A stretch of 64,000 bases of DNA, from the IMG/VR virus record IMGVR_UViG_3300033233_000009, positions 60,598-124,597 of that record; one strand, 5' to 3'. The DNA is from a virus. The position numbers and the translations under genes were made by a program. Numbering within the stretch: the stretch's first letter is position 1; every line of letters begins with the position of its first letter. Shown piece after piece: positions 2,124 through 45,775 of the stretch. The notes under the pieces are model-generated. The model was not told where the DNA came from. It was given only the letters and a program-made list of their open reading frames with translations, and searched no databases.

Positions 2124-2515
2124 GCCCGACTGCTGCCGCTGAGGCCGCGGAGCTACGCGCCGCCGAGCTAGCGCTCGGGAACCTGCCCGAGCGAGCGCTC
2201 ACGCTGCTGTACCGCTCGCTCGTGCAGAACCGCCACCTGAGCCCGCTGGAGCACCCGGCCCGGCCGATGACCGAGTGGGAGCTGGACGCCTTCCGTCAGG
2301 TCGAGGCGGAGTTCTTCACGCCGGACGGCACGCGCACGCTGCGCGTTGCCCCGGCCTTCGTGGACGCGGTGAACGCCGGGAACGTCCCTGTGCGACTGAC
2401 GGGCACGCCTCGGGATGTCTACTACTGCGGAAATTACAACGGCTGGGTCCAGCTACGGAAGCTGATCCCCGGCGAAGCGGTGTACGTGGACACGGAAAGA
2501 AAGGATCGAACATGA
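2120..2515 (+). CDS. ThyX C-terminal-fragment paralog, translationally coupled to the Cas12 gene
   Basis: HLSPLEHPARPMT and YCGNYNGWVQLRKLIPGEA match the C-terminal part of the ThyX at 7920-9167; lacks the RHR motif; ATGA overlap with cas12. Confidence 0.7.
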   Translation: MSPTAAAEAAELRAAELALGNLPERALTLLYRSLVQNRHLSPLEHPARPMTEWELDAFRQVEAEFFTPDGTRTLRVAPAFVDAVNAGNVPVRLTGTPRDVYYCGNYNGWVQLRKLIPGEAVYVDTERKDRT

Positions 2516-4629
2516 AACGTCGAACGTCCCAAGCATTGGTCGGTATCTGGACTGGATTCGCACGGCCGCCCGTGGAGGGGGCCGCTCTGGTGCGGCGAGA
2601 GCTGGAGAAGGCGCACGACTACTACAACCAGATCGTGCAGTTGGAGCTGGACAGGCGGACCCTGTACCGCGCTGCGCGCGGGACGGTCGGGGAGACCCTC
2701 ACCGCCCTCCAGGCGGAGATGGACGCGCTGAACGAGAAGATCACGGCGGAGGTCGGCGGCCTGCGCGCAGTGCGCCAGGCGGCGCGGACGCGCGTCGAGG
2801 ATCCCGCGGCGAGTGCCAGGATCAAGGCGGTGAAGGAGGAGCGGCGGGCGCTCGCCGAGCGGCTCAAGGCGGCGCGCGCGGAGGCCGAGAAGGTCTACGG
2901 GCCGGGCAACGAGGAGCTGAGCCAGCGGAGCGCCCGTCTGGCGGAGGGGAACACGGCGTCGCGCATCCGGGAGAAGACGAACCGCGCGGCGCTGGAGGAA
3001 ATGCTCACGGAGCCGGAGTGGGCTGACGAGTGGAAGATGGTCGCGCGGATCAATCACGACGCGAACGAGGTGAAGAAGCAGATCCGGGCCGCCTGTGGCC
3101 TCACCCCCGGCACGTACCTGCTGGTCGAGAAAGCGGTCGAGGCTGCGTTCGCGCCGCCGCCGAAGGGGCGGCCGCCGCGGCCCGACCCGCGCCCGAAGGA
3201 GCGGTTCATCGGCGAGGGGCGCCTCGGTGTGCAGGTGCACCGGCTGCCGGTGGCAGACCTGCTGGCGGGTCGCAACGGGCAGATCGCCCTGCGCATGAGC
3301 GACCGGCTCCCGAACGGAGCGAAGGCGGCGCAGCGGTACGGCACGCTGCGCATGCGGGTCACCACCGACGGTCAGTACGCCGAGTTCCCGGTGAAGCTCC
3401 ACCGGCCACTGCCGCAGGACGGGTTCATCACGCAAATCTGGATCCGCGCAGAGCGGCAAGGACCGCGGACGCTGTATTCGCTCCAGTGCGTCGTGGAGTC
3501 GCCGCAGTGGGCGAAGCCTGGCCCGGTCGAGGGTGCCGGGACGATTGCCATTGACACCGGCTGGCGCGTCATGGATGGCGGCATCCGGGTGGCCTACTGG
3601 ATGGACGACCACGGGCGGCACGGGCAGCTCCTCGTCCCGGAGGGGGTGCGGAAGGCGATCGACTACGCCGACGTGCTGCGCGGCCGGGCGGACGATCACT
3701 TCAACGCCGCGTGCGCGGAGTTGCGCGCGTGGATGGTCGCCAACCCGGGGCACGTCCCGGCCTGGATGCAAGCCGCGACGGCGACGATGCCGTACTGGCG
3801 CGCGCACGGGAATCTCATCCGGGTGGCCCGGCGGCTGGGGGCCGACCACGGCCTGTGGAAGCAGTGGCGCATCGACCGGAAGGCGGCGGGGCTCGACCTG
3901 TTCGGCACGTTCGCGGAGGTGAGCGCGTGGCTCCAGCAGAGGCATGCCGCGACGACGGCCCCCGTCCACCCGCTCATGCAGATCGCCGTCTACCTGGAGT
4001 GGTGGCGGCGGAAGGACGCGCACCTCTACGACTGGGAGATCCGCGAGCGGCGCTACGCCGAGAACGCGCGGACCGAGATGTTCCGCAAGGTCTGCCAGGT
4101 CGCCCGGCAGTACGAGCACGTGCTGGTCGAGAAGATCGACCTGCCGAAGTTCGCCAAGAACGCCTCGGCCGAGGAGAAGGTGAACCGGGACTGGCTGCAC
4201 CGGGTGGCGCGCATCGCATCGCCCGGCGACCTCGCCGCACGGCTCATGGAGACGTGCAAGGGGCAGGCGGAGAAGATGGCGCCGCACAACAACACGCGCA
4301 CGTGCCACAAGTGCGGTCACGTGAACAATGCGTGGGAGCGGCAGGCGGATAGGGTCCAGACCTGCGCGGGGTGTGCGGCGAGCTGGGACCAGGACGAGAA
4401 CGCTTGCCGGGTGATGCTGGCGCTGTGGCACGGGCATGCGCCCGGTGGCGAGCGCGAGCGGTCGGGTGATGCACCGACCACGGCACCCGCTCGCAGCGCG
4501 GAAAACAAGCCCGCTCGCAGCGGGGAAGTGGCAGATCGGCAGCCCACGGGGTCTTCCGATCTGGGGCGCCCGAGGGACCGCTCGCAAGGCGGTCGCCAAG
4601 GGCCCGAAAGGATAGCAGGGCCCGGATGA
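2512..4629 (+). CDS. cas12m: type V CRISPR effector, Cas12m (V-M/V-U1)-like, TnpB-derived, about 705 aa
   Basis: ATG at 2512 with AAAGGA RBS; N-terminal AHDYYNQIVQLE plus long coiled coil; GLTPGTYLLVE; GEGRLGVQ; KLHRPLP; RuvC-I IAIDTGWR; RuvC-II VLVEKIDL; Zn finger CHKC..CAGC; RuvC-III WDQDENAC; CRISPR array begins 4 nt after the stop. Subtype judged from recalled motifs only. Confidence 0.8.
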   Translation: MKRRTSQALVGIWTGFARPPVEGAALVRRELEKAHDYYNQIVQLELDRRTLYRAARGTVGETLTALQAEMDALNEKITAEVGGLRAVRQAARTRVEDPAASARIKAVKEERRALAERLKAARAEAEKVYGPGNEELSQRSARLAEGNTASRIREKTNRAALEEMLTEPEWADEWKMVARINHDANEVKKQIRAACGLTPGTYLLVEKAVEAAFAPPPKGRPPRPDPRPKERFIGEGRLGVQVHRLPVADLLAGRNGQIALRMSDRLPNGAKAAQRYGTLRMRVTTDGQYAEFPVKLHRPLPQDGFITQIWIRAERQGPRTLYSLQCVVESPQWAKPGPVEGAGTIAIDTGWRVMDGGIRVAYWMDDHGRHGQLLVPEGVRKAIDYADVLRGRADDHFNAACAELRAWMVANPGHVPAWMQAATATMPYWRAHGNLIRVARRLGADHGLWKQWRIDRKAAGLDLFGTFAEVSAWLQQRHAATTAPVHPLMQIAVYLEWWRRKDAHLYDWEIRERRYAENARTEMFRKVCQVARQYEHVLVEKIDLPKFAKNASAEEKVNRDWLHRVARIASPGDLAARLMETCKGQAEKMAPHNNTRTCHKCGHVNNAWERQADRVQTCAGCAASWDQDENACRVMLALWHGHAPGGERERSGDAPTTAPARSAENKPARSGEVADRQPTGSSDLGRPRDRSQGGRQGPERIAGPG

Positions 4630-4632
4630 CGG
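4454..4632 (+). promoter_or_regulatory. putative CRISPR leader overlapping the cas12 3' end
   Basis: 10-bp inverted repeat GCGAGCGGTC (4454-4463)/GACCGCTCGC (4576-4585); 13-nt direct repeat CCCGCTCGCAGCG (4486, 4510); partial repeat GTCGCCAAGG at 4592. Confidence 0.55.
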
Positions 4633-6289
4633 GTCGCCAAGGCAGCGCGGGGCCTTCGACGCCGCGACCCGCGCGTCCGTCCATGCGTAGTGCGCGCCGC
4701 TGGGTCGCCAAGGCAGCGCGGGGCCTTCGACGCCGCGACCCGCTGCCGCTCGCCGGGGCCGGCTCGGAGGAGCTGCCGTCGCCAAGGCAGCGCGGGGCCT
4801 TCGACGCCGCGACGCGCGATCGACGTCCTTCCGCGCGGCCTCCACCTTGTCGCCAAGGCAGCGCGGGGCCTTCGACGCCGCGACTGTGCGCCCGTTAGTC
4901 TACTCCATGCGCCTCCGGCGGTCGCCAAGGCAGCGCGGGGCCTTCGACGCCGCGACTGGCGGCCCGCCTCCCTCCGGTGCGGTGCGCTCCGGGTCGCCAA
5001 GGCAGCGCGGGGCCTTCGACGCCGCGACAACGAGGCGCCGCCCGACGGCATCGACGACATCGCGGAGGAGGTCGCCAAGGCAGCGCGGGGCCTTCGACGC
5101 CGCGACTGGGGCAGGGAGCCGGATCGGGTGTATGCTTGGGCTTGGGTCGCCAAGGCAGCGCGGGGCCTTCGACGCCGCGACTGCTCTCTCTCTCTCCTTC
5201 TCTATTTTTCTCCTCTCTCTGTCGCCAAGGCAGCGCGGGGCCTTCGACGCCGCGACGCGTGCTCCGTGTCGGGGGACGGCTCCTCCGTTGCGTCAAGTCG
5301 CCAAGGCAGCGCGGGGCCTTCGACGCCGCGACGACAGGCGCTTCGGGAGCACATGATTCGCGAGCTGGGTCGCCAAGGCAGCGCGGGGCCTTCGACGCCG
5401 CGACAAGCCGGTTTGGTCCTCCCGGCTGGCGGCCCTGCTCGGGTCGCCAAGGCAGCGCGGGGCCTTCGACGCCGCGACCTTTCCTGTTGGTGCGACGGGC
5501 ACGGAGACCCGTCCAGTCGCCAAGGCAGCGCGGGGCCTTCGACGCCGCGACCTCCCGTGGACAGCCCCGTGTGCTTGGCAACTTCGAGGTCGCCAAGGCA
5601 GCGCGGGGCCTTCGACGCCGCGACTAGTCGCTCGGCTGCAGCAGCAAGTCGGAGAGGACGACGGTCGCCAAGGCAGCGCGGGGCCTTCGACGCCGCGACC
5701 TCGCAACATGCAGAGGGTCAGGGGACGCCCCTCGCCGAGGGTCGCCAAGGCAGCGCGGGGCCTTCGACGCCGCGACTATCCGCTCCGCCCGATCAGACGC
5801 TGCGCCCGTCGGAGTCGCCAAGGCAGCGCGGGGCCTTCGACGCCGCGACGAGATCCTCGGCGAGCAAGACCCGGTGGCCCCTCACCAGTCGCCAAGGCAG
5901 CGCGGGGCCTTCGACGCCGCGACCATCCCGCCCTGGAGTGAGTCCGACCTGCGCCACAAGGTCGCCAAGGCAGCGCGGGGCCTTCGACGCCGCGACGAGC
6001 ACGCCGTCGGTGAAGAGGCGGATTTCTACTTCGTCGCCAAGGCAGCGCGGGGCCTTCGACGCCGCGACCGAGGGTCCGAGTGGAGCTGGGGTCGCTGATG
6101 CCGGAGTCGCCAAGGCAGCGCGGGGCCTTCGACGCCGCGACCGGGGCTGGATACTGTGACAATCGCCCGGGCAGCAATGCATGTCGCCAAGGCAGCGCGG
6201 GGCCTTCGACGCCGCGACCCGTGCTTGCCGACGAGGATGCGGCGCGCGTCGGAGTCGCCAAGGCAGCGCGGGGCCTTCGACGCCGCGAC
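4633..6289 (+). CRISPR. CRISPR array: 23 identical 36-nt repeats GTCGCCAAGGCAGCGCGGGGCCTTCGACGCCGCGAC and 22 unique spacers of 35-42 nt
   Basis: Repeats counted at 4633, 4704, 4778, 4849, 4921, 4993, 5071, 5146, 5221, 5297, 5369, 5443, 5516, 5589, 5664, 5741, 5814, 5888, 5961, 6033, 6106, 6183, 6254; orientation inferred from cas12 and leader position. Confidence 0.98.
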
Positions 6290-6313
6290 TGGTAAGCGCT
6301 GGCGGGGGGCGCC

Positions 6314-6348
6314 TTGACGCCGGTGCTGCCACCGGCTAAGGTGCCGCC
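6314..6348 (+). promoter_or_regulatory. sigma70-type leaderless promoter
   Basis: TTGACG-N17-TAAGGT-gccgcc-ATG(6349); near-identical copy on the minus strand at 45733-45775. Confidence 0.7.
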
Positions 6349-6558
6349 ATGTACCGTGACTTCGGGGAGAACATCCAATTCCCGCGTGGCGTCGCCGCAG
6401 AGGTCGAGAACCGGGCCGACGACGCGATCGTGCGCCTGTGCTTCACGACCCTGGAGCAAGGGGAGGCATGCGTGCAGACGCTGCGTGAGGCCGCCGACCG
6501 GATGGAGAAGGAGCTGACGCTGTGGCGGAAGGCCCAGAGCGAGGGGAAGTGGCTGTGA
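6349..6558 (+). CDS. hypothetical protein
   Basis: ATG directly after the promoter; overlaps next gene. Confidence 0.6.
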   Translation: MYRDFGENIQFPRGVAAEVENRADDAIVRLCFTTLEQGEACVQTLREAADRMEKELTLWRKAQSEGKWL

Positions 6559-6752
6559 AGCTCGTCGAACGCTGGCCACTCACGATCCTTTACCTGCTGC
6601 TCCTCGGAGTGACGGCGGTTCTCGGAAGCGTCTTCGCGGCGATACTGTGGAAGCTGGGCCCGTGGTGGACCGGAGGGGGCCTGGTCGTCTCGATGTTCTG
6701 TGCGTTCGTGGAGATCGACCGACGGGCGCAGCGGCGAGGAGGACGGCGATGA
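6555..6752 (+). CDS. small membrane protein (2 TM)
   Basis: GTG at 6555; ILYLLLLGVTAVLGSVFAAILW. Confidence 0.6.
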   Translation: MKLVERWPLTILYLLLLGVTAVLGSVFAAILWKLGPWWTGGGLVVSMFCAFVEIDRRAQRRGGRR

Positions 6753-7018
6753 CTGAGGTTACTCTCCTCTGGAGCTTGGCATGCATCTTCACGGGGCTCG
6801 CATGGTACCGGTACGGGCTTCGTAAAGGCCGCCGAGAGGTCCGCGATGCCGCGCTGACGGCCATCGTCTCCGCGCTGCACGAGGTGCGGACGAGAGAGGC
6901 AGTCGCGACGGTCGGCAGCCTCTACCGGGTCGTCGATGGCGAGTGGACCGACGAGCAGATGCGGGATCAGATACGGGCGATACAGTCGGAAACACGGGAG
7001 ATCGGGAGGCAGCGATGA
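6749..7018 (+). CDS. membrane-anchored hypothetical protein
   Basis: ATG at 6749 with GGAGG RBS; N-terminal TM followed by YGLRKGRRE, similar in layout to 1842-2123. Confidence 0.55.
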   Translation: MTEVTLLWSLACIFTGLAWYRYGLRKGRREVRDAALTAIVSALHEVRTREAVATVGSLYRVVDGEWTDEQMRDQIRAIQSETREIGRQR

Positions 7019-7320
7019 GGGGCTTGGCGTTAGGTCTGTTCAGCGTGCTCGGGGTCGTGATCATCGGGTCCATGGTCGTTGGAGTCCACGAACTGCTCGA
7101 CCGCCTTGCGCGCGACGCGGCCGGCTCCTGCTGGGTGGACCCGCGCCCCGAAGTGCGACTCGACTTCGACTTCTACACCGGCATCGACGGGCAGCTGTCG
7201 CGCTGCGGGTACTCGCGGGGCACGCTGGGTAGGGCGCAAGCCATCGCTGGAGATCCGCGTGAGGGCTTCGTCGATGTCGTCCGCTGCTACCCGCTCGCCA
7301 GGAAGGAGTGCCCGAAGTGA
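7015..7320 (+). CDS. membrane-anchored hypothetical protein
   Basis: ATG at 7015 with GGAGG RBS; N-terminal TM. Confidence 0.55.
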   Translation: MRGLALGLFSVLGVVIIGSMVVGVHELLDRLARDAAGSCWVDPRPEVRLDFDFYTGIDGQLSRCGYSRGTLGRAQAIAGDPREGFVDVVRCYPLARKECPK

Positions 7321-7565
7321 AGGTCGCGCTGAACATCGTGCTGTTCTCGGCATTCATCTTTCTCGGCTTCATGCTCGGGCGCGTCCACGAGATGAATGAC
7401 CACGCCGAGCGTGACGTGAAGGAGTGCTTCGCTTGCGGTCAGACGCAGGCGTGCGCATTCGGTCCCGGCATCGTTGGCGTGCAGTCGTGCGAGGTCGGCT
7501 ACAAGTGGGGCCGCTGCGAGCCGGACCCGCGGTTCAAGGTGCCGCGCGAAGGAGAGGTCAAGTGA
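7317..7565 (+). CDS. membrane-anchored Cys-rich protein
   Basis: N-terminal TM; CFACGQTQAC..GVQSC..WGRCE disulfide-type motif. Confidence 0.55.
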   Translation: MKVALNIVLFSAFIFLGFMLGRVHEMNDHAERDVKECFACGQTQACAFGPGIVGVQSCEVGYKWGRCEPDPRFKVPREGEVK

Positions 7566-7641
7566 CCCAGACCGAAGAAGAAGCCACGCAGAAGTACGCG
7601 CGTGAACTGGACGTGCGAACCGTCGGGAGCATCCGGTACTG

Positions 7642-7923
7642 ATGCGCGAGCGAACGATCCTCGCGCCAGGTGCCTACGCGGTGCCGCTGGCGGACTACCC
7701 GAAGTGCAAGCACTGCGGCGCGCTCAAGTACGCGGTCTTCGACGCGTCGCCCGGCGGCTTCAGCGGCGGCTCGGAGCACATCCACGCCCCGCACTGCCCC
7801 GAGCTTCGGTGCGAGCACGGCGTCCTCTGGGCCTACGAGTGCGAGAAGTGCGAGGCCGCGGACGAGGCACGCAGGAAGCAGGAAGCGGAGTTGTCCCGGT
7901 TCCGGGACGAGGAGTACCAATGA
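7642..7923 (+). CDS. Zn-finger hypothetical protein
   Basis: CKHC, CEHG..CEKC. Confidence 0.55.
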   Translation: MRERTILAPGAYAVPLADYPKCKHCGALKYAVFDASPGGFSGGSEHIHAPHCPELRCEHGVLWAYECEKCEAADEARRKQEAELSRFRDEEYQ

Positions 7924-9167
7924 GCTACGACGCGAAGATCCTGGCAGACTCGATCACGGAGCACGGCGAGCGCCTGACCACGTTCGAGGTCACGTTCCCG
8001 CGCATCGTGCTCGCTGAAGTGAATACGCACCGGATGCTGAGCCGGAACAGCGCCTCGTCCCGGGCCACCCCGGTCGCGAAGAAGATCGCGCAGATCGAGG
8101 TCGATCCGTTCATCCCGGCGGCGTTCATCAAGAACCAGAAGGGGATGCAGGGCGCGGAGGCGCTGGACGACGCCATGGCGCTGGAGGCCGAGGCGTGGTG
8201 GCGGCAGGGAGTGACCGGCGCGCTCAGTGTCGCCAGGGCGCTGTCCGGCGCGGGGCTACACAAGGCGCTCGCGAACCGCGTGCTCGAACCCTACGCCTGG
8301 CACACCGCTATCCTGTCGGCGACCGACTGGTCGAACTTCTGGCACCTGCGTGTGAACCCGGACGCGCAGGGGGAGTTCCGCACGGCGGCGGAGATGATGC
8401 TCGCGCTCTACGAGAAGCACGAGCCGACGTTGCTCGGGGACGACGACTGGCATCTGCCGCTGGTATCGGAGGAGGAGCGCGACGCCGCGCTGCCAGGTAC
8501 GCCGGCAGAGGTGCATGCAGCAGATCAGCGCCTCGTGAAGATCAGCGTGGCCCGTTGCGCTCGCGTCTCGTACCTCACGCACGACGGAGTCCGGGACCAG
8601 GCGGAAGACCTGGCTCTCTACGAGAAGCTCGTCACGGGCGGCCACCTGAGCCCGCTGGAGCATGTGGCGCGGCCGATGACGACCTACGAGCGAACACGGT
8701 TCGAGCAGATCCCTCACATGTGGGACGGACGTGTCTGGATCTGGGCAGGCCAGCGGACGACGCACTACCTCGGCAACTACGATGGGTGGGTCCAGCACAG
8801 GAAGCTCGTCCCCGGCGAGGCGGACATCCTCGGGTACCGAGCGCGAGTCGAGAAGGACTGCGAGCAGATGGGGGCCATGTGCGCCGCGTACGAGGAGAAG
8901 TTCAAGATGCAGCGCGAGATCGTCTGCGCTGCGCAGGACTGGCGGAAAGAGGACATGGATCGGGAGGCAGAGGCGCACGAGGAGACGGGACGCGGCCTGC
9001 TCGACACGCTCGCCGACGCCGTGGACGCTCTGAACGAGTGGGTGAAGGAGCGCGCCGCGGAGCGCGCGGGGTCGTTCACCTGTCCGACCTGTGGCCCCCA
9101 CGTCAAGGCGGACGAGGACGGATGCTGCGCGACGTGCGGCGCGGATTGCAAGATGGAGGGCGCGTGA
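7920..9167 (+). CDS. thyX: FAD-dependent thymidylate synthase with C-terminal extension
   Basis: MSYDAKILADS..RLTTFEVTFPRIVLAEVNTHRMLSRNSASSRA (ThyX motif); NFWHLR; SVARCARVSY; HLSPLEH; extra C-terminal Zn ribbon CPTC..CATC. Confidence 0.9.
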   Translation: MSYDAKILADSITEHGERLTTFEVTFPRIVLAEVNTHRMLSRNSASSRATPVAKKIAQIEVDPFIPAAFIKNQKGMQGAEALDDAMALEAEAWWRQGVTGALSVARALSGAGLHKALANRVLEPYAWHTAILSATDWSNFWHLRVNPDAQGEFRTAAEMMLALYEKHEPTLLGDDDWHLPLVSEEERDAALPGTPAEVHAADQRLVKISVARCARVSYLTHDGVRDQAEDLALYEKLVTGGHLSPLEHVARPMTTYERTRFEQIPHMWDGRVWIWAGQRTTHYLGNYDGWVQHRKLVPGEADILGYRARVEKDCEQMGAMCAAYEEKFKMQREIVCAAQDWRKEDMDREAEAHEETGRGLLDTLADAVDALNEWVKERAAERAGSFTCPTCGPHVKADEDGCCATCGADCKMEGA

Positions 9168-9364
9168 ACGAAGGCCCGAAAGTCCGTGTCGAGGCGTCCT
9201 GCTCGGACTGCGTCCACTGTCGGAACGACAGGTACGTGTGCCAGGGCGACTCCGGCTTCGACGTCTCGTGCGGACATCCCGACGTGAAGGGTGACCGGCG
9301 CATCGGGGACACGACGTGGAAGACGCCTGCGTGGTGTCCGTTCCTGGGAGGACAGCAACCGTGA
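9164..9364 (+). CDS. small Cys-rich protein
   Basis: CSDCVHC...TPAWCP; GTGA overlap. Confidence 0.55.
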   Translation: MNEGPKVRVEASCSDCVHCRNDRYVCQGDSGFDVSCGHPDVKGDRRIGDTTWKTPAWCPFLGGQQP

Positions 9365-9690
9365 CCGACGAGGAGTGGGCTGCCTCAATCGTGAACGTGG
9401 ATCTGCTGGAGGCCTACGCGGAGTCGGCAGCGGCGCTGGGCACTACGGACCTAGTCATGTGTCTCAACGTCGCGGAAGACGGCCTCGTGGCTTTCCGGCG
9501 CGAAAAGCTCCAGGCCGACTGGCGCAAACTGTTCCCGGATCCGAGCACCTTCTCGAAGCAGCTGTCGGAGCCCGCGACCGATCACACCGCTCTGCAGATG
9601 GCCTTCTGGTTCGTCGTGCAAGCGCCTGGTGGCGTCGTGTGCATCGCGGTGGGTTGCCAGCGTGCGCCACGAAAAGCAGCGACGGCCTGA
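9361..9690 (+). CDS. hypothetical protein
   Basis: GTG at 9361 after GGAGG. Confidence 0.55.
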   Translation: MTDEEWAASIVNVDLLEAYAESAAALGTTDLVMCLNVAEDGLVAFRREKLQADWRKLFPDPSTFSKQLSEPATDHTALQMAFWFVVQAPGGVVCIAVGCQRAPRKAATA

Positions 9691-9716
9691 GTACGGGAAC
9701 CACCGAAGGAGAGAGC

Positions 9717-10922
9717 ATGGAGCACGAGCAGACGACGAACGATGACCTGAACGACCACGCGGTCGAGCGGGCGATGCGCGAGGACGCGGAGGCCAACGAC
9801 CCGGTCAACCACCCGAAGCACTACCGGAGCCACCCGAGTGGCGTGGAGTGCATCACCGTCGTCGAGCACTTCAACTTCAACCGCGGGAACGCCATGAAGT
9901 ACATCTGGCGCGCCGGGGAGAAGGGCGACGTGATCGAGGATCTGAGGAAGGCCGCGTGGTACGTACAGCGCGAGATCGAGCGGCTGACGCGACCAGCGGT
10001 ACCCGTCCCTGACGTGCATGTCGCGGCGTCACCGGAGACGATCGACGAGGTGCTGGCCCCGGCCGGCCCGATCACCTGCCTCGTCTGCAACTTGACGTTC
10101 GGCACCGCGGAAACATTCCAGGCGCACCGCGAGATGGTCCACGGCGAGGAGGAGATCCCGCCGGCCCTGGACTGCCCCATCTGCCGCGCCCTCGCGCGGA
10201 TGCCAGGGACTGACTGGATCTGCGCGCACCACAAGAAGACTCCCGCCATCGACTCCACGTGCGATGGCGTTCTAGCCGGTGCCGGCCACGGTGGAGAAGA
10301 CCGGCGCTCTGACGCGGCGCTGTTCGCCGGTGGCGAGGAGGATGACGGGTGGGACCCGATGGACCTGGAGCGCGCGCTGGATCGAGCGCGGCTGGTGGAA
10401 GTCGGCTCGCGCCGATTCATCAACAGCGTGCGCGGGCTGCGATCTGTGATCGTGGCGCTGCTGCGAGCGTACACGACGGTGCAGGCACTGGAGCACCAGG
10501 AGGCTGCGAAGGCGGCCGAGCGGCTGACCGTGCAGCTAACGGCACGGACAGCGAAGCTCGAACACGTGGAGACCGAGATGACCGCCGCCTACGCGGCTGC
10601 CGGCATCAGCGACATGGAGAACCTGGCGAGGCACATCACCCGGCTGCGCACCATGGCAGCGAGCGCGGAGGACTACCGCGACCGGGCAACCGTCGCGCAG
10701 GCGGAACGACAGACCGCCGAGGCCCGTCGTGGTTCCCTGCTGGCGCTCGTCGAGCGCGTCGGCGCACTACTCGCGTACCTGGACGGCCGCTGCCGCTCGG
10801 ACGGCTCCGAGAACGAGACGGAACGCGCCGCGCTCAACGCCTACGGCTACGTGCGCGCACGGTTGCAGTCCGCCATGGCCGCGCTGCCGCAGGATCTGCG
10901 GGAAGAAGCGTGCGGCGCGTGA
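9717..10922 (+). CDS. DUF3310 (T7 gp1.7-like) domain protein with Zn fingers and coiled coil
   Basis: DPVNHPKHY..ECI..FNRGNAMKYIWRAGEKG..EDLRKAAWY is the DUF3310 signature; CLVC..H..H C2H2; long helical C-terminus. Confidence 0.8.
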   Translation: MEHEQTTNDDLNDHAVERAMREDAEANDPVNHPKHYRSHPSGVECITVVEHFNFNRGNAMKYIWRAGEKGDVIEDLRKAAWYVQREIERLTRPAVPVPDVHVAASPETIDEVLAPAGPITCLVCNLTFGTAETFQAHREMVHGEEEIPPALDCPICRALARMPGTDWICAHHKKTPAIDSTCDGVLAGAGHGGEDRRSDAALFAGGEEDDGWDPMDLERALDRARLVEVGSRRFINSVRGLRSVIVALLRAYTTVQALEHQEAAKAAERLTVQLTARTAKLEHVETEMTAAYAAAGISDMENLARHITRLRTMAASAEDYRDRATVAQAERQTAEARRGSLLALVERVGALLAYLDGRCRSDGSENETERAALNAYGYVRARLQSAMAALPQDLREEACGA

Positions 10923-10924
10923 AG

Positions 10925-10960
10925 CAACCCAAGGCAGCGCGGGGCCTACGACGCCGCGAC
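10925..10960 (+). CRISPR. solitary CRISPR repeat (31/36 identical to the array repeat)
   Basis: caacCCAAGGCAGCGCGGGGCCTaCGACGCCGCGAC, intergenic, followed by 18 nt and then the TTGACA promoter. Confidence 0.9.
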
Positions 10961-10978
10961 AAGGTCCAATCCACCCAG

Positions 10979-11007
10979 TTGACAGCAGCGGCAGCACGCT
11001 GTACGCC
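10979..11007 (+). promoter_or_regulatory. sigma70-type promoter
   Basis: TTGACA-N17-TACGCC, ATG at 11016. Confidence 0.55.
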
Positions 11008-11015
11008 TACAGAAG

Positions 11016-11393
11016 ATGACCGACGACGACGCCAAGAGCCCCAAGGCCCCCGCTCCGCTGAACCGCCAGCAGCGCCGCGCCCTGAAGCGCGGCCGGATGA
11101 AGCTGATCGAGGGCGGCAAACCGGCGGACGCCCCGTCGGTGGACATGAGCCAGCCGGCCGGGCGCTTCGCCTACCACCTGCACGAGTTCATCGTGCGGTA
11201 CTTCGCGGCAAACCCGGATCTGGAGCGCACGGCGGCGTGCGCGGCCGCGTTGCAGATCGCGGCGAAGTTCGCTGTCGAGCTGGGCGGGGACACCGATCAG
11301 TTCGCCATGGCGGCGTCGCACTTCTTCGACGGCGAGGCCGCGGCGCGCCGGAAGCCGGGCGGCGGTACGCCTGGGCCGGGCAGGGCAGGATGA
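11016..11393 (+). CDS. hypothetical protein
   Basis: ORF downstream of the promoter; NRQQRRA motif common in phage proteins. Confidence 0.6.
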   Translation: MTDDDAKSPKAPAPLNRQQRRALKRGRMKLIEGGKPADAPSVDMSQPAGRFAYHLHEFIVRYFAANPDLERTAACAAALQIAAKFAVELGGDTDQFAMAASHFFDGEAAARRKPGGGTPGPGRAG

Positions 11394-11400
11394 GCGCGCC

Positions 11401-12717
11401 ATGAGCGAACCGCGACCGGAACAGCCGACCATCCCAGCCGAGGACTACTTCGGCCCGGGGGACGCCGCGACGTACGACTACGGTGTCCTGTACCAGGCGG
11501 AGTGGGAGACGCCGTGGGACGCGACGGCCATCGCTGCGCGCCTGCACGCGCGGGCGCTGGCGGCGCAGGGGGTCCCGGTGCTGCTCAAGTCGTTCTCGGG
11601 CATCATCGTGAACGACGCGGGGATCCCCGAGCCCGTGTTCGCGCCGGGGGGCCTGCCGGACGTGGTGAAGGCCGAGGTCGGCACGCTGCCCGACACGTCG
11701 ATCCGTACGCTGGCCGTCTTGCTCCGGCACATGGTGGTGCACGGCCAGGGCACGCTGGAAAACCATCTGATGCCGCGCCAGGTGGTGGCCTCCGACCCGG
11801 AGCTGCTGCTGGCCCTGCGGCGCGCGGTGTACGACTCGACGATCACCTACACGGTCTGGGAACGGGACCGCGTGGCACCCGGCATTGCGGCGCAGCTTGC
11901 CCGGTGCGGGCAGGCGTGGGTCCCCTGCCACCAGAACGCGGCGATGCTGATCCGGTCGGGCGTGCCGGCGGAGAAGGTCCACGTCGTGCCGCACCCGTAC
12001 GAGCCGAGCGACCCGATCTGTCGGCTGGTCGAGCGGCGGCCGTTCGCGGAGCGCCGCTTCTACACCATCGGGCGCTGGGAGCCGCGCAAGGGCCTGCATG
12101 AGCTGGTCGGCGCGTTCCTGGAAGCGTTCCGGCCGGGCGACGACGTCCGGCTCACGATCAAGACCAGTCCGGGCACGTGGAGGGGGTACCCGACGCCCGA
12201 GGAGAGCCTCGCCGAGTGGCTCAAGCGGTACGACTACTGGCGGAACCCGGAGACGATGGCGGCGCACCTCACGGTGGACACGCGGCGGTACCCGCGGAGC
12301 AAGATCCTGAAACTGCACTTCGACCACAACCTGTACGTCTCCGCGTCGCATGGAGAAGCGTGGGCCCTGGGGGCATTCGAGGCGAAGCTCGCGGGCAATC
12401 GCGTGGTGCACGTGCCGTATGGCGGCACGGCGGACTTCTGCGAGCCGGAGGACGTGCCGGTGGCCTACGGTATGGAGAAGGTGCACCCGAGCTACGGCTG
12501 GGAGCCCGACGCCGAGTGGGCGAGCGTCACGAGTGAGGCGCTCGTGCGCGCGCTGCGCAAGGCGACGCCGCCTGTCGCGTTCGCGCGGCCGGCGCACTAC
12601 GAGCGCGTGTTCGGCTTTCCGGCCGTCGGGCGGCAGATGGCCGACTTGATCCTCAAGCGGCTTGACGGAGTGGACCCAAAGGCGGCCGCGTGGCTGCGGG
12701 AGCGGGTGAAGACATGA
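11401..12717 (+). CDS. GT-B (GT4-like) glycosyltransferase
   Basis: YTVWE; KVHVVPH; YTIGRWEPRKG; SASHGEAWALGAFEAKLAG (Glycos_transf_1 E-x7-E). Confidence 0.85.
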   Translation: MSEPRPEQPTIPAEDYFGPGDAATYDYGVLYQAEWETPWDATAIAARLHARALAAQGVPVLLKSFSGIIVNDAGIPEPVFAPGGLPDVVKAEVGTLPDTSIRTLAVLLRHMVVHGQGTLENHLMPRQVVASDPELLLALRRAVYDSTITYTVWERDRVAPGIAAQLARCGQAWVPCHQNAAMLIRSGVPAEKVHVVPHPYEPSDPICRLVERRPFAERRFYTIGRWEPRKGLHELVGAFLEAFRPGDDVRLTIKTSPGTWRGYPTPEESLAEWLKRYDYWRNPETMAAHLTVDTRRYPRSKILKLHFDHNLYVSASHGEAWALGAFEAKLAGNRVVHVPYGGTADFCEPEDVPVAYGMEKVHPSYGWEPDAEWASVTSEALVRALRKATPPVAFARPAHYERVFGFPAVGRQMADLILKRLDGVDPKAAAWLRERVKT

Positions 12718-12977
12718 AGATCGCGAGCGAGCAGGACGAGTCAAAGAAGGATGCACTGCTCCTGGCGGTGCACGCCGTGAGCACGCAGGCATACGGGGAC
12801 CTCGTGCTGCGGCTGGGCCTGGAGCCCGAGGATGCTGTTGGCCTGATCGGGATGGCGATGTTCGAGGAAGCGGCGGCGATGACGCAATCCCATCGGCTGT
12901 CGCGGGAAGAGTTCCTGACGGCAGCGGGTCTGTGCTGGGACGCAGTGGCCGCGGTGCGCGAGAAGGGGGCAGCGTGA
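12714..12977 (+). CDS. hypothetical protein
   Basis: ATGA overlap. Confidence 0.55.
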   Translation: MKIASEQDESKKDALLLAVHAVSTQAYGDLVLRLGLEPEDAVGLIGMAMFEEAAAMTQSHRLSREEFLTAAGLCWDAVAAVREKGAA

Positions 12978-13555
12978 GCACCGGACGACCCAGCGACGAT
13001 GCCTCCACCGAGGAGTGGCAGCTCTATGTACTTCACCGGGTGGCGCCGCTCATCGCGGAGCGCGATGTAGAGTTTCAGGGGGCGCTGCCGCTGTTTACGG
13101 CGCTGGCCGCACAGATGGACGTCGAGACCGCGCGGTTCGCGCCCGTCGTGAGGGAGATGCTGGCTCTCGCGCAGGCTGCGGCAGTGAGTGTCGAGGGCCT
13201 GCTCGACACCCTGAAGGCGGCGTTCGCTCCCGACCCGATGCCCTGGCCACTGTGGCTCGGGCGTCCGCGTCAGGCGGAGGGCGGCGACGGCAGCGAGGCG
13301 TACTTTGCGCCGCCCGCGTGGGAGGCTCACTGCGAGCGGGTCTACCTGCGAGAGTGGGAGCGACGCCGTCTGGAGGCGCAGGGCCTGGACTTCGCGACGA
13401 TCGAGCGGGCGAAGAATCGCGGGACGGCTGACGAGCGCGCGATCATGGCGCAGGCGGGGCTCGGGAGCCTCGGCGGTGGCGTGGTCGTGGTGGTGGAGCG
13501 AGCGCCGCAGGGCGAGGGGGCTACGGACGATCCGGCGGAGCGGACGGGGCCATGA
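12974..13555 (+). CDS. hypothetical protein
   Basis: GTGA overlap. Confidence 0.5.
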   Translation: MSTGRPSDDASTEEWQLYVLHRVAPLIAERDVEFQGALPLFTALAAQMDVETARFAPVVREMLALAQAAAVSVEGLLDTLKAAFAPDPMPWPLWLGRPRQAEGGDGSEAYFAPPAWEAHCERVYLREWERRRLEAQGLDFATIERAKNRGTADERAIMAQAGLGSLGGGVVVVVERAPQGEGATDDPAERTGP

Positions 13556-13830: not shown

Positions 13831-14948
13831 CGCCCACGGTCCGCCTCTACGGCCGCGTGCTCGGCTACGGATCGCACGCGCAGGTCACGGATGGATTTGC
13901 CGGCGTGCTGCGCGACGCGGACCTGCTCGCCGGCATCGTCGCGTTCGATCGCGACCTGCCGCCCGACTCGCCCCAGCCCGGCGGCGCGCTCGCGCCGCAT
14001 GCCGTATTCACCGGGCCACTCGGCCACCTGCGCGCCATGCGGAGCGGTGCGCGCCACCGGGCACGGTACGCGATGCTGGCACCGAACAGCTCGGCGGTGC
14101 CCCCGCTCCTGCTCCGGGCGCTGGAGAGCGAGTGCACGGAAATCCTCGTGCCGTCGGAGTGGGCGCAGGAAGTCGTCGAGGAGCTGACAAGCATTCCGGT
14201 GCGCGTCGTGCCGCACGGCATTGCCCCGGGGTTCGTTCGGAGCCCGTCCCTGCGCGAGGTGGCCGCGGAGGCGTATCGACGTGGCGCCTTCAACGTGCTG
14301 CACCTGTCGTCGAGTGACCGGGAGCGCAAGGGCACGCACGCCTTGCTGGAGGCGTGGGGGATGCTGATGGCGAAGGGGGAGCTGCCCGCGGAAGCGAAGC
14401 TCCGCCTGGTGCTCGACGTGGAGGCGCTCTCGAAGACCGTGGCGTGGATGGCGGAGCGTGCGGGGCCAGGTATGCGCCTCGATTCCGTCACGGTGACGGC
14501 ACGGCTGGAGGCGCGTCCGACAGCGCTCGCGCAGGTCTACGGCGTGCAGCACGTCGTGTGCCAGCCCTCACGTGGGGAGGGCTTCGGCTGCTGCCCCCTC
14601 GAAGGGCTCGCGTGCGGGGTGCCGATCGTGGCCACGGCCTGCACGGGGCATTCGCAGTGGTTCCGCCCTCTCAGTCTTCAGCCCAGCCTCCCGGGCGCCG
14701 TGCGGGTCGAGCATGGCCCGGACGCGCGAATCGACGACCTGCCGGGGGCCATGGCGCCGACGGTCGAGCCCGACGCCGTTGCGGTGGCGCTGCGGCGCGC
14801 GTACGCGGAGTGGGAGGCGCTCGACGCCGCGGCTGCATCCGGGGCCGCGGCCCTGCGCGAGACCTGGGCGTGGGGCAGACAGATCGCGCCCTTCGTGGAG
14901 TATCTGCGTCAATCGGACGCCAACCAGCAGGAGACGACGACCCCATGA
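13827..14948 (+). CDS. GT-B (GT4-like) glycosyltransferase
   Basis: ILVPSEW; VVPHGI; ERKGTHALLEAW; PSRGEGFGCCPLEGLACGVPIVAT. Confidence 0.9.
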   Translation: MTPTVRLYGRVLGYGSHAQVTDGFAGVLRDADLLAGIVAFDRDLPPDSPQPGGALAPHAVFTGPLGHLRAMRSGARHRARYAMLAPNSSAVPPLLLRALESECTEILVPSEWAQEVVEELTSIPVRVVPHGIAPGFVRSPSLREVAAEAYRRGAFNVLHLSSSDRERKGTHALLEAWGMLMAKGELPAEAKLRLVLDVEALSKTVAWMAERAGPGMRLDSVTVTARLEARPTALAQVYGVQHVVCQPSRGEGFGCCPLEGLACGVPIVATACTGHSQWFRPLSLQPSLPGAVRVEHGPDARIDDLPGAMAPTVEPDAVAVALRRAYAEWEALDAAAASGAAALRETWAWGRQIAPFVEYLRQSDANQQETTTP

Positions 14949-15768: not shown

Positions 15769-15778
15769 GCGTGCCGTC

Positions 15779-19086: not shown

Positions 19087-19313
19087 CGGGTCGGGGCAAG
19101 GGCCCGACGGCACGGGTCAAGATCACGTTCGCGACCATCGCGGAGACGCGCGACCGGATTGCCGCCGCGGCGAAGCAGGCCGGGACGGACGTGGAGAGCG
19201 TGATCGCCGAGGCGCTCTACGTGCACCTGCACCGGCTGGAGACGAGCGGCAAGCGGGCGTACCCGGACGCGACGGACAAGCTGGCACGGCGCGTGCAGCG
19301 AAGGAAGCCATGA
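19083..19313 (+). CDS. ribbon-helix-helix-like small protein
   Basis: VKITFAT..TRDRIAAAAKQAGTDVESVIAEAL. Confidence 0.5.
   Translation: MTGRGKGPTARVKITFATIAETRDRIAAAAKQAGTDVESVIAEALYVHLHRLETSGKRAYPDATDKLARRVQRRKP
19282..19297 (+). promoter_or_regulatory. sigma54 (-24/-12) promoter
   Basis: TGGCACGGCGCGTGCA: GG-N10-GC, 12 nt before the ATG at 19310. Confidence 0.55.
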
Positions 19314-33520: not shown

Positions 33521-33871
33521 ATGGCGACATCGAAGAAGCGAATCAGGCGACGGCGGAGCGAGTCGGAGGTGTCCGTGGCCATCAACGAGCGTGTCCACTC
33601 GCTGGAGGACGCCGTGTTTGCAGCGATGGACGCCGTCGAGCGTCACGCCGGGCTGCGCGCGGCAACGGAGATCGTGCCCGTTGCGCTGACCATGTTCGCG
33701 GCGCAGATCGCCTGGCACGAGACGCTGGCCACCGAGGAGGACTTCGTGAACGAGGCGCGGCGCTGCTTTCAGAAGATCGCGATCGCGCACGCGGGCTGCC
33801 GGCGCAGGACGCAAGGCCAGCCCGCGCACGGGGCGCCGGTGCACGGGGCACGGCGGGACGATCTGAATTGA
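33521..33871 (+). CDS. hypothetical protein
   Basis: ORF with coding bias. Confidence 0.55.
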   Translation: MATSKKRIRRRRSESEVSVAINERVHSLEDAVFAAMDAVERHAGLRAATEIVPVALTMFAAQIAWHETLATEEDFVNEARRCFQKIAIAHAGCRRRTQGQPAHGAPVHGARRDDLN

Positions 33872-34217
33872 GCGTGGCCGCACTGCGCGAGGAGTTGCAG
33901 CGCGAGCAGGTCGTCTGGGCGCTCGGATCCATGCGCCCTGTGAAGGACTGGGAGCGCTGGGGCCTGGCCAAGGCGGCACTGGAGGCGCACCTGCCACCCG
34001 GCACGCCGATGCGGCTCCCGCTCGGGCTCATGCCGGACTGGTACCGCCAGACGTTCGCCGACCCGACGCAGATTGATGGCCGCGTCGCGCTGATCGAGGC
34101 GAACTCGGCGGTGGTGACGGTGATCACTGCCACGCACTGGAACGGCGGCACGAGGTACTCGGTCGAGTCCGTCGCCTTCCTCGACGCGGTGCTGGCAGGC
34201 CAGGTAGGGGACGCCTC

Positions 34218-34544
34218 GTGACGCTCGCTTCCCTGAAAGAGGACAGCGAGTACGAGCTGATCGTGCGGACGCTGGCGGCCGGAACCACCGTGCGCGTATG
34301 GGGCTGGTTGAACGAAAGCATCGCGCGGCACGTGCCGAGCGGCACGCGCGTTCTGCTGGACGCTCCGGTGGTGCCGATCCTGCTCCGCGACCTGTCGCCC
34401 GAGCCACAGGGCCAGGTCGCCACGGTGCTCGATTGGGATGCGTACAACGTCCGGTTGCTGTTCAGCGACGGCCAGCAGGTCTGGATGCCGACCGAGCGCT
34501 TTATCGACGCGGTGTTCGACGGCACGGCAAGGGACGCCTCGTGA
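34218..34544 (+). CDS. hypothetical protein flanked by 21-nt direct repeats
   Basis: GGGACGCCTCGTGACGCTCGC at 34208 and 34531. Confidence 0.55.
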   Translation: MTLASLKEDSEYELIVRTLAAGTTVRVWGWLNESIARHVPSGTRVLLDAPVVPILLRDLSPEPQGQVATVLDWDAYNVRLLFSDGQQVWMPTERFIDAVFDGTARDAS

Positions 34545-34837
34545 CGCTCGCGGAGATTCGCGCGGAGGTCGAGCGGCACCTGGCGGTGTCGGCCCTCTCG
34601 GGCGCGAGCCGGGCGGTGAGCGAGGGGACGGCCCAGCGCGTCCTGGCGGCCCTGCTGCGCGCACACCTGCGGCCGCGGTGCACCCTGCTTTGGTACGGCG
34701 AGCCCTGGCTGCTGGAGCGGTTCGAGCACGGCGACCTGATCTTCCACCGCCCCCGGAGCGTGATCCGTCTCGATCGACTTCCTGACGGCGCTCCGGCGGG
34801 GCGGCGTGCGGGACGACCCGGCCGGCGCGGAAGCGCC

Positions 34838-34870
34838 CGTAACGTGACGGTTGCTGCGCGTCACGTTACG
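34838..34870. repeat. perfect 12-9-12 inverted repeat
   Basis: CGTAACGTGACG-gttgctgcg-CGTCACGTTACG. Confidence 0.8.
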
Positions 34871-34956
34871 CCCGTCCGTTACGCCTTCGGTTGCAGCCAG
34901 GACGGAACGAAGGTTGCGCCGGGGGCTGCCTACGCTGCCAGTGCCGCCAGTGGCGT

Positions 34957-34972
34957 TGGCACGGCGGGTGCA
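34957..34972 (+). promoter_or_regulatory. sigma54 promoter
   Basis: TGGCACGGCGGGTGCA, 12 nt before ATG 34985. Confidence 0.65.
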
Positions 34973-34984
34973 GGCTGGGGGAGC

Positions 34985-35422
34985 ATGACGAACATGAAGC
35001 TGGCCGATGGCGAGTACCGGGTGCGAGAGACGACGCGGAACCCGCTCCCTGCGAGGGAGCACCGGAAGGAAGGCGGCTGGCTCCGCGCCGCCGTGTGGGA
35101 CCGTGGACTGCAAATCACGGTCAAGGATGGCCGACTGAGCGGCTACCCCGGCCACGGTCGGCACCCGCCGCCGCTCACCGCTGCGCAGCAACGACTGGTC
35201 TGTCAGGCAATCACCCCGATGCTGACGCCGTGGGCGCCAAGCGTGCCGAGTGAACTTCACGAGCTTCCCTACCAGGGCGCAAGTCGGGTTCTCGATGCCC
35301 TCGCACTCGCGGGGAAGATCACGCTCGACGACGTGCGCGAGGCGTGCGCGGTCGTCAAGGCAGTGCGAGACATCGACGAGGTGTTCGAGGGCCTCCGCGC
35401 TCTGCACGGGGGTGCGTCGTGA
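34985..35422 (+). CDS. hypothetical protein
   Basis: GGGAG-ATG after the sigma54 site. Confidence 0.55.
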   Translation: MTNMKLADGEYRVRETTRNPLPAREHRKEGGWLRAAVWDRGLQITVKDGRLSGYPGHGRHPPPLTAAQQRLVCQAITPMLTPWAPSVPSELHELPYQGASRVLDALALAGKITLDDVREACAVVKAVRDIDEVFEGLRALHGGAS

Positions 35423-45106: not shown

Positions 45107-45589
45107 ATGCTCCAGGCCACACGCATCGCATCTCGCATGTACCAGGGGCCCTGCCCCCCATCGACCGATGCCGTGCGGGGACACCGGTTCACCGTGCTCG
45201 TGTTCTGCGCGCGCGAGATTCAGCCGTACCTGCCGGACCACCTGCTCCGCGGGCTCGACGTGCTGTACGTGCCGCTGAACGACAGCTTCAACGAGCCGAT
45301 GACCGACGCCGAGTGGGACCTCGCGCACGGCGCGGGCAGGGAGGTGGCCCGACTCACTGCGCTCGGTGGGCGCTCGCTAGTGACGTGCGCGGCGGGCCTG
45401 AACCGCTCGGGCATCGTGAACGCCATCGCGCTCCACTACCGCTTCGGCTGCTCGGGCGCCGGGGCCATCGCTCAAATCCGCGCGACGCGCGGACCGCAGG
45501 CGCTGAGCAATCCGAGCTTCGAGCGCCGCCTGGTCAAGCTCGGTTCACGACGGCGCAGACCCCATGCCGCCGCGGGGCCGGCGTCGTAG
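45107..45589 (+). CDS. dual-specificity/tyrosine phosphatase-like protein
   Basis: VPLND; LVTCAAGLNRSG (CX5R); AIAQIRATR..ALSNPSF. Confidence 0.82.
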   Translation: MLQATRIASRMYQGPCPPSTDAVRGHRFTVLVFCAREIQPYLPDHLLRGLDVLYVPLNDSFNEPMTDAEWDLAHGAGREVARLTALGGRSLVTCAAGLNRSGIVNAIALHYRFGCSGAGAIAQIRATRGPQALSNPSFERRLVKLGSRRRRPHAAAGPAS

Positions 45590-45732
45590 GCCCCGCGCTG
45601 CCTTGGTGCTCTCGACAAGACGACGTCGCGGTGTCGTAGGCCCCGCGCTGCCTTGGGAATGGGGACCGGCATGGGGCCGTCAAGCCTGTACTGCTCGCCG
45701 TGACGTTGGAGGCCCCACGTTGCCTTGCAGGC
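45575..45732 (-). CRISPR. degenerate CRISPR mini-array (3 repeats; spacers of 36 and 14 nt)
   Basis: Minus strand: gcctgCAAGGCAaCGtGGGGCCTcCaACGtCaCGgC (45697-45732), attcCCAAGGCAGCGCGGGGCCTaCGACaCCGCGAC (45625-45660), agcaCCAAGGCAGCGCGGGGCCTaCGACGCCGgccC (45575-45610). Confidence 0.9.
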
Positions 45733-45775
45733 ACATGGCGGCACCTTAGCCGGTGGCAGCACCGGCGTCCAGGCG
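45733..45775 (-). promoter_or_regulatory. promoter of the mini-array, duplicate of 6310-6352
   Basis: TGGACG-N17-TAAGGT; 42/43 identical to 6310-6352. Confidence 0.75.

Follow-up and report, generated by a model that had tools for sequence, protein, structure and literature searches.

The final 64 kb of a 124,597-bp sediment virus contig (IMG/VR record IMGVR_UViG_3300033233_000009; G+C ~70%; estimated 69% complete) encode a Cas12m-like effector and a CRISPR array, together with four copies of the same repeat that lie outside the array. We refer to this stretch of 64,000 nucleotides (nt), positions 60,598 to 124,597 of the record, as the window. Positions are those of the window unless they are marked as positions of the contig (G000), from which 60,597 has to be subtracted to obtain the window coordinate. 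One of the four satellite copies is solitary (sat1, 10925-10960, plus strand) and the other three (R1', R2, and R3) form a mini-array on the minus strand (45575-45732). The reading that we favor, with a probability of about 0.5, is that sat1 is a relic of a former position of the cas12m-array cassette, the mini-array being a secondary array that is expressed and would give the viral Cas12m two fixed CRISPR RNAs (crRNAs) for target binding. A first-pass annotation of this DNA had proposed a system with two tiers, an adaptive array for immunity against competitors and dispersed, non-adaptive guides for the same protein. The effector, the array, the satellites, their scaffold and a promoter found ahead of the mini-array speak for that proposal. 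However, sat1 is better explained as a relic, the T-to-A change shared by several copies does not mark a lineage, and no target was found for the guides in the contig, 90 fetched loci, IMG/VR, or INPHARED.

The effector, its array and four repeat copies outside it

The effector gene (2512-4629, +) encodes a protein of 705 amino acids (aa), in which a D-E-D RuvC triad and a zinc finger of the C4 type are predicted. In a phmmer search of the PDB, it matched 23vw_A (E=7.5e-37, in three stretches spanning residues 19-638), the Cas12m2 chains 8hio_A and 8hhl_A (~1.7e-12), and UnCas12m4a (4.7e-09). Pfam gave only one weak match, to PF07282 (TNB), with E=1e-4 and 22.8 bits, under its cut-off of 26.3. 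Residues D348, E540, D626/D628, C598, C601, C618, and C621 (the cysteines arranged as CxxC...CxxC) are invariant among 11 homologues. The matches to solved Cas12m chains bear out the earlier identification of the effector, which on sequence similarity is Cas12m-like and homologous to these proteins. A set of 5.8 billion proteins yielded 17 further proteins matching the effector at E<=0.001, seven of them at 58-71% identity, and the alignment of the 11 proteins served to gather 135 relatives from metagenomes, of which the best 80 were kept. The best relative in GTDB genomes had only 28% identity and gives no hint of the host. The D-E-D Cas12m proteins tested by Bigelyte et al. bound DNA without cutting it, and their crRNAs are described there as 50-60 nt long and cleaved inside the repeat, with T- or C-rich protospacer adjacent motifs (PAMs) (PMC11013384); Omura et al. 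leave cleavage open for the D-E-D clades (PMC10442227). The C-terminal tail of the effector (4454-4632) is of low complexity and ends in a DRSQxGRQ motif kept in 8 homologues. The DNA encoding this tail overlaps a partial repeat (GGTCGCCAAGG, 4591-4601), so the array leader may sit inside the 3' end of cas12m.

The main array (4633-6289, +) begins 4 nt past the cas12m stop codon and consists of 23 identical 36-nt repeats, with a start-to-start spacing of 71-78 nt, and 22 different spacers of 35-42 nt, in agreement with the single effector and 23 repeats annotated initially. Matches to the 31-nt core of the repeat at <=3 mismatches numbered 26, versus 0 in 100 shuffles. No Cas1, Cas2, or Cas4 was found in the contig (69% complete). 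As for a possible anti-repeat, the contig contains no reverse-strand repeat-like copy, at the sensitivity of a mismatch scan and a covariance model, save the mini-array 39 kb away, which agrees with the single crRNA and missing tracrRNA of type V-M. Comparison of the main array with INPHARED (blastn) gave only noise.

Some spacers provided clues about the targets of these systems. Spacer 5 (4957-4992, +) matches, at 36 of 36 positions, a 134-aa gene of the virus itself located before the window (contig 54153-54188, +). The 5' flank of this self-protospacer is CTCGG, and an additional 17-nt partial match occurs at contig 54064-54080. This single case hints that the self-match may be tolerated, either through a non-cutting protein or through the absence of a PAM. 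In a related locus (L015), spacer 2 (L015 7769-7806) matches a 299-aa gene of the virus studied here at 30 of 32 positions (contig 11493-11524, within the aligned stretch 11490-11527, -), with mismatches that are mostly PAM-proximal, making competition within the virus group plausible. Its protospacer is flanked by CTTG, unlike the CTCGG of the spacer 5 self-match, and this flank would fit inter-virus competition and a T-rich PAM, again as a hint from one case. Three contigs of one related virus (L012, L013, and L014; array spans compared 10498-11073, 8490-8787, and 4294-5426, respectively) have spacers common in order. L013 lacks the cas12m-proximal spacer, which fits spacer gain or loss at the cas12m end despite the absence of cas1 and cas2 nearby.

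Beyond the array, a mismatch scan of the 31-nt core on both strands of the 124,597-bp contig detected exactly four copies: 10930-10960 (+) with 1 mismatch, 45625-45655 (-) with 2, 45575-45605 (-) with 4, all of them 3'-terminal, and 45697-45727 (-) with 7, the background of unrelated sequence starting at 9 mismatches. A covariance model retrieved 27 hits at 41.5-55.3 bits, the next one scoring 16.8 bits; since the model was built from these same copies, this result rules out further copies and nothing more. The four copies therefore stand where they had been placed, ~4.6 kb and 39 kb from the array, and the whole-contig scan added none. The lengths given for two guides were also correct: 18 nt (10961-10978) between sat1 and the next TTGACA, and 14 nt (45611-45624) between two 36-nt units of the mini-array, or 19 nt when measured to the conserved core.

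Two other properties ascribed to the satellites called for a different interpretation. They had been described as having lost the first 4-5 nt of the repeat, but this segment is not deleted; it is different (CAACC, ATTCC, AGCAC, GCCTG). It varies among related arrays too (GGAAC, GTCAC, GCAAC), and the 5' ends of sat1 and R3 are GCAAC(C) and AGCAC, respectively. The T-to-A change is indeed present in three of the four satellites, which contain CCTACGAC, the fourth having C at the variant position. It does not define the separately maintained lineage that had been proposed, since this position is the most variable column of the scaffold, with T, A, C, and G all occurring among 28 repeat variants, and the A state is that of arrays in relatives. 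In L012-L014, whose effector is 66% identical to that of this virus, the repeat is GGAAC followed by CAAGGCAACGCGGGGCCTACGACGCCGCGGC; in L015 (58% identity) GTCAC precedes the same core, and the very heterogeneous array of L011 (63% identity) has mostly GCAAC. The variation of the 5' pentamer among lineages and the agreement of the A state with the arrays of relatives make the satellites look like older versions of the repeat and not like a new mutated lineage. In the explanation that we favor, the four stray repeats would be leftovers of earlier arrangements of the cassette.

The repeat has a proposed scaffold with a 4-bp stem (AGGC/GCCU) and a 5-bp pseudoknot helix (CGCGG/CCGCG). Among 28 distinct repeat variants from this virus, L011, L014, and L015, 90.7% of the cells are paired, versus 36-42% with slid partners, and the pseudoknot helix reaches 97.9%. 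Covariation is thin, with two pairs changed on both sides, as much as in 29 of 500 shuffles. The pseudoknot helix is contained in the minimum-energy fold of four of the five variants found in this virus (array repeat, sat1, R2, and R1'), R3 being the exception. All four satellites retain the 31-nt crRNA scaffold, R3 with loss of the pseudoknot helix. The most diverged copy, R1', departs from the core at 7 of its 31 positions, and three of these substitutions fall within the pseudoknot helix. It keeps both helices (5/5 and 4/4 pairs) via compensatory changes in its predicted structure, an outcome reached by only 1.4% of 200,000 simulated sets of 7 random substitutions (P = 0.014). The G/A pair at positions -24/-2 is swapped to A/G in R1' and in the arrays of relatives and, by analogy with Cas12m2, is probably a covarying non-canonical pair. 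In Cas12m2, a stem and a pseudoknot make up part of a crRNA scaffold of 36 nt, the first 7 nt of which (-36 to -30) are disordered in the complex, and the guide-target duplex comprises only 17 bp (PMC10442227). Judging from that structure and from our pairing counts, a scaffold with a dispensable 5' end would fit the Cas12m2 type.

The solitary copy and the differing positions of the cassette

The scaffold of sat1 is identical to the array core at 30 of 31 positions. The copy begins 3 nt after the stop of a DUF3310 gene at 10922 (its core, 8 nt after) and is followed by an 18-nt gap, the would-be guide AAGGTCCAATCCACCCAG (10961-10978, +), and by the leaderless promoter (10979-11018, +; TTGACA-N17-TACGCC-N8-ATG) of the open reading frame (ORF) 11016-11393, hereafter w11016. 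A generic scan found no promoter-like and no terminator-like sites around sat1, and no cas12m pseudogene remnants were found near any satellite (best other match, E=0.24).

A comparison of all predicted proteins of the contig with L011-L015 (tblastn) revealed a counterpart of this junction. In L012-L014, the genes follow the order w1459, ThyX, DUF3310, cas12m, array, degenerate terminal repeat, promoter, w11016 homologue (84% aa identity), and glycosyltransferase (81%). When the junctions between DUF3310 and w11016 of the window and L014 were aligned, mean column identity was 83% and sat1 lay opposite the terminal repeat of the L014 array, of which it is the orthologue. The promoters (GTTGACAGCA(G/C)CGGCAGC...) are homologous and conserved between both viruses; the would-be guide shows no homology with the trailer of L014. 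Today the cassette is situated between w1459 and ThyX, 8.4 kb upstream of sat1. It opens with a duplicated 3' fragment of ThyX (1883-2515, +), directly 5' of cas12m, which is a partial, C-terminal paralogue of the full ThyX gene (7920-9167). The match of this fragment to the PHROG 85 thymidylate synthase is confined to profile positions 635-705, and the repeats D15/D16 (~80% nt identity) connect 2218-2480 with 8627-8823; the fragment delimits the present cassette on its left. Two further sites are occupied by the cassette in L011 and L015. These differing locations indicate that the cassette was moved or replaced, and the synteny with the terminal repeat of L012-L014 makes sat1 best read as the remainder of a former cassette position. 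The cassette would then have changed place during the evolution of the virus group, and sat1 would be the orphaned terminal repeat of an array once situated between the DUF3310 gene and the w11016 promoter. Although sat1 may yield a by-product crRNA, we rate it mainly as a relic.

An alternative starts from the operon in which sat1 is embedded, with a stop codon on one side and the next promoter on the other: the satellites could be docking or decoy RNAs. Cas12m would bind or cut the handle in viral transcripts, in the case of sat1 a proposed read-through mRNA, tuning mRNA fate or titrating viral or host Cas12m. The handles are intact, a transcript of the mini-array would run antisense into a phosphatase gene (45107-45589), and solitary repeat units are known as RNA anti-CRISPRs (PMC10651486; PMC11656645). 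However, a decoy would inhibit the virus's own system, because the virus encodes the cognate effector; moreover, there are only two sites and no host V-M system is known. We therefore regard this explanation as improbable. The more specific suggestion that the solitary repeat acts as an RNA anti-CRISPR (Racr; PMC10651486) finds a parallel in the presence of a single CRISPR repeat copy in a viral genome. In contrast, Racrs mimic host repeats against host Cas proteins, in viruses that do not have the cognate effector, whereas this virus encodes both effector and 23-repeat array and sat1 is explained by synteny, so that this suggestion was not sustained.

The mini-array, its promoter and its guides

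On the minus strand, the stop codon of ORF 45791-46810 is followed, after 11 nt, by a 50-nt promoter stretch (-35, 17-nt spacer, -10, ATGT) and then by R1' (45697-45732), spacer 1 (45661-45696; 36 nt long, and 41 nt if measured up to the conserved core that follows), R2 (45625-45660; core 29/31, helices intact), spacer 2 (45611-45624), and the terminal repeat R3 (45575-45610), whose 3' end is diverged. The promoter stretch (45730-45779, -) is a copy, identical at 47 of 50 positions, of the trailer of the main array (6306-6355, +), which carries the leaderless promoter of ORF 6349-6558 (TTGACG 6314-6319, TAAGGT 6337-6342, ATG 6349). In the copy, the -35 element is TGGACG (45771-45766) and the -10 element TAAGGT (45748-45743). 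By analogy with the promoter class of this virus, transcription is predicted to start at A 45736, 4 nt ahead of the 36-nt repeat R1'. Eight of the 55 TTGAC[AG] sites occur 35-39 nt before a predicted start codon, a spacing that implies leaderless mRNAs. Members of the class (TTGAC[AG]-N17-(T/C)A...-N6-8-ATG) are found at 6314, 10979, 20291, 23849, 31776, and 52944 (-), plus two sites before the window, and the ends of the arrays of this virus, L014, and L015 all stop 16-25 nt ahead of such a -35 element. A candidate internal promoter in spacer 1 (CTTGACGG) was rejected, as the sequence at its -10 position, ATTCCC, does not fit the viral class. The 339-aa neighbor gene of the mini-array has no relatives in IMG/VR.

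In this view, the mini-array would be a minor second array, built from repeats of an older type and joined to a copied viral leaderless promoter, 4 nt past its predicted start. Given the full scaffold of R1' and R2 and the need of Cas12m2 for a guide of only ~17 bp, it is most likely transcribed, and R1'+GAGCAGTACAGGCTTGAC... and R2+GTCGTCTTGTCGAGAGCAC are most likely loaded on Cas12m as crRNAs that are hard-wired and non-adaptive. Their binding would silence a target that lies beyond the sequenced 124.6 kb, either in the host or in a competing element. The idea in the first-pass annotation that truncated guides permit binding without cutting adds little to this, since the Cas12m2 duplex has only 17 bp and the tested Cas12m proteins do not cut (PMC10442227, PMC11013384); short guides would be no special trick here.

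The mini-array has possible parallels around other cas12m genes. With a crude array finder, we examined 59 loci of >=4 kb, shorter loci being left out; 46 had an array, and the 23 of them with a 33-36-nt consensus were scanned further. Periods below 62 nt occurred in 4 of the 23 (L023, L024, L066, and L077) and units more than 500 nt from the main array in 3 (L024, L077, and L086), some of these loci being duplicates of one system (L012-L014; L034 and L035). L009 comes from a 182-kb low-G+C virus record and has an effector 32% identical to that of this virus. It has a 3-repeat array after cas12m and, ~1.3 kb before this gene on the opposite strand, five further repeats, which are diverged, 31 nt long, separated by spacers of 16-19 nt, and spaced with a period of 46-50 nt. 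The hairpin of these short units is 95.8% paired, with three of six pairs changed on both sides, and none of 500 shuffles reached its covariation score. Repeat copies in the L009 record lie solely beside the cassette. In L010 two identical 12-nt spacers recur with a period of 48 nt, and its record contains no dispersed copies at <=3 mismatches. The short guides of L009 and L010 had no self-target. L017 and L018 had no array. It is thus common to find secondary or diverged units, or units with short spacers, around cas12m. In addition, the array of L011 has at least 24 units (24 at <=8 core mismatches) plus more decayed copies within long gaps, and two of its short guides (12570-12589 and 12677-12704) recur in diverged duplicate units inside 13107-13255 and 13836-13917.

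The guides could alternatively act by partial complementarity, as in CreR or tracr-L, and repress genes of the virus or cas12m itself. Regulatory mini-arrays are widespread in other CRISPR types (10.1101/2023.03.03.530964), and the perfect self-match of spacer 5 makes action on the virus's own DNA conceivable. However, the three satellite guides had no target in the contig, whether mismatch limits of 2-7 were allowed or seeds of at least 10 nt were sought, bar one chance-level 10-mer, and there was nothing near the cas12m upstream region, 39 kb from the mini-array; ~31% of the genome is missing from the contig. CreR-type autoregulation of cas12m was rejected, since neither a >=10-nt seed nor a 14-nt match with <=2 mismatches was found close to cas12m or to any promoter of the contig. 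When spacer 1 was compared, anchored at the promoter, with each of the 101 TTGAC sites, the best score was 22/41 (mean 15.6), and this possibility was rejected too. Self-regulation of this kind seems very unlikely to us.

A third possibility is that all four copies are inert debris, namely scars of relocation and products of array erosion, with scaffolds that remain intact because the copies are recent or because of past selection. The orthology of sat1 with a terminal repeat at a former cassette site agrees with it, as do the truncation of R3 within a gene end, the absence of targets for the satellite guides, and the eroded arrays with irregular periods (34-59 nt) in L066 and L011, relatives without adaptation genes. 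Against it stand the fusion of a promoter within 4 nt of the first repeat of the mini-array, the preservation of both helices in R1', with its low chance probability, the near-identity of R2 (29/31) and sat1 (30/31) to the working repeat amid unrelated flanks, and the five uniformly short units of L009 with their compensatory changes. We consider this explanation possible, if doubtful, for the full set of copies.

Several observations weigh against an expressed mini-array with fixed guides, and against the parallels drawn for it. The truncation of R3 within the 3' end of a convergent gene for a dual-specificity phosphatase (45107-45589, +) looks like a rearrangement scar, so that the left edge of the mini-array looks designed and its right edge like a scar. 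The -35 element of the promoter copy is weakened (TGGACG), a generic sigma-70 promoter and terminator scan detected nothing near the mini-array, and none of the relatives compared covers its junction. The L014 orthologue of sat1 is itself decayed by deletions of 6 and 9 nt. The selection visible on R1' may predate its separation, having acted within a working array, and the short spacers seen elsewhere may reflect erosion and not design. The searches for targets of the satellite guides recommended at the outset were negative in the contig, as described, in the 90 fetched loci, and in IMG/VR and INPHARED. Exact 18-mers of the three guides had 0, 1, and 1 hits in IMG/VR (sat1 guide none, spacers 1 and 2 one each), and the two single hits (L091 and L092; flanks CGA and TCC) did not extend past 18 nt and were taken as chance. 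The mini-array against INPHARED (blastn) gave only noise (all E>=0.8), a weak negative as to related viruses, of which the databases hold few. As a side observation, the phosphatase gene takes its last codons (45575-45589) from the reverse complement of R3, and the CTA of CCTACGAC that bears the T-to-A change is the reverse complement of this gene's TAG stop.

Viral context and comparison with known systems

Two sediment metagenome runs, each belonging to a different study, contained contigs with identical stretches of this virus (window 2000-12000), at depths of ~17-20 (X1) and ~2-4 (X2). Genes similar to RecE, RecT, and DnaB are recognizable (contig 4488-6723 and 12215-13135), and no tRNA genes were found in the viral sequence searched. 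Five large ORFs tested (contig 17996-20845, 30676-33759, 37395-39047, 42167-44590, and 45861-47891) had no PHROG match and a sixth (contig 33813-35405) only marginal ones; the virion module of this virus is unusual. A TGGCACG-N4-GTGCA motif (repeat family D6) is present in five copies directly 5' of start codons (19278, 21549, 25324, 25977, and 34953). These copies resemble sigma-54 promoters, a hint that the host may bear sigma-54.

The system shares with characterized type V-M systems (MmCas12m2, GoCas12m, MsCas12m, and MvCas12m) a homologous effector, 36-nt repeats with stem and pseudoknot, and the absence of adaptation genes and of an anti-repeat near the gene. It is virus-borne like that of the myxophage protein MvCas12m (610 aa, 8 spacers), presented as the first phage Cas12m in a preprint (10.64898/2026.09.14.751636). 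It differs from them in its effector of 705 aa, versus about 600 aa, with a D-E-D triad, in its 22 spacers, in the four repeat copies outside the array, and in the differing genome positions of the cassette in related viruses. In the parts of the literature searched, we saw neither dispersed nor secondary V-M repeat units described for viruses, and in Shmakov et al. (10.1101/2023.03.03.530964) type V-M comes up only in the discussion.

The closest known things are delocalized crRNAs, regulatory mini-arrays, solitary repeat units, and viral mini-arrays, all from other CRISPR types. The delocalized crRNAs of CRISPR-associated transposons (CASTs) of types V-K and I-F are likewise encoded apart from the array, pair a repeat that matches it in part with a fixed spacer of short length, and serve a nuclease-inactive effector alongside an ordinary array (PMC11656645); here, in contrast, the units are 39 kb away and in a virus, no target was found for their guides, and no link to a transposase was seen, although no search aimed at TnsB, TnsC, or TniQ was made. 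With regulatory mini-arrays (Shmakov et al., 10.1101/2023.03.03.530964) and CreR (10.1101/2023.03.10.532045), the mini-array shares a degenerate repeat pair around one short spacer (R2, 14-19 nt, R3) and, potentially, the reuse of a resident effector beyond immunity. However, as described, their units lie in or beside the cas locus and partly match a cas or toxin promoter, whereas the mini-array is 39 kb off and no partial match was found for it in the contig. Viral mini-arrays for inter-virus competition are virus-borne arrays of one or two spacers too, but they are reported to use host Cas proteins and host-type repeats (PMC11656645), unlike the mini-array, which carries the repeats of the virus's own effector and has no viral target found.

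It is conceivable, as a tentative generalization, that Cas12m viruses run two tiers, an adaptive array and, separate from it, promoter-started minimal crRNA units (31-nt scaffold, 14-19-nt guide, period ~47-50 nt) with which the non-cutting effector would repress transcription of host or rival genes in a fixed manner. If true, this would be a viral counterpart of the delocalized crRNAs of CASTs; L009, despite an effector only 32% identical, has the same unit size and compensatory evolution of its repeats. The synteny, for its part, reveals that within one virus group the cassette moves between sites, where a solo repeat can stay after it has gone, which calls for caution in reading stray repeats as functional RNA. 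Cas12m is a natural CRISPR interference protein, which binds DNA without cutting it. Viruses that maintained fixed guides for it next to an adaptive array would possess a repressor that can be programmed, for taking over the host or for self-regulation, and the genes in need of silencing would be directly indicated by these hard-wired guides.

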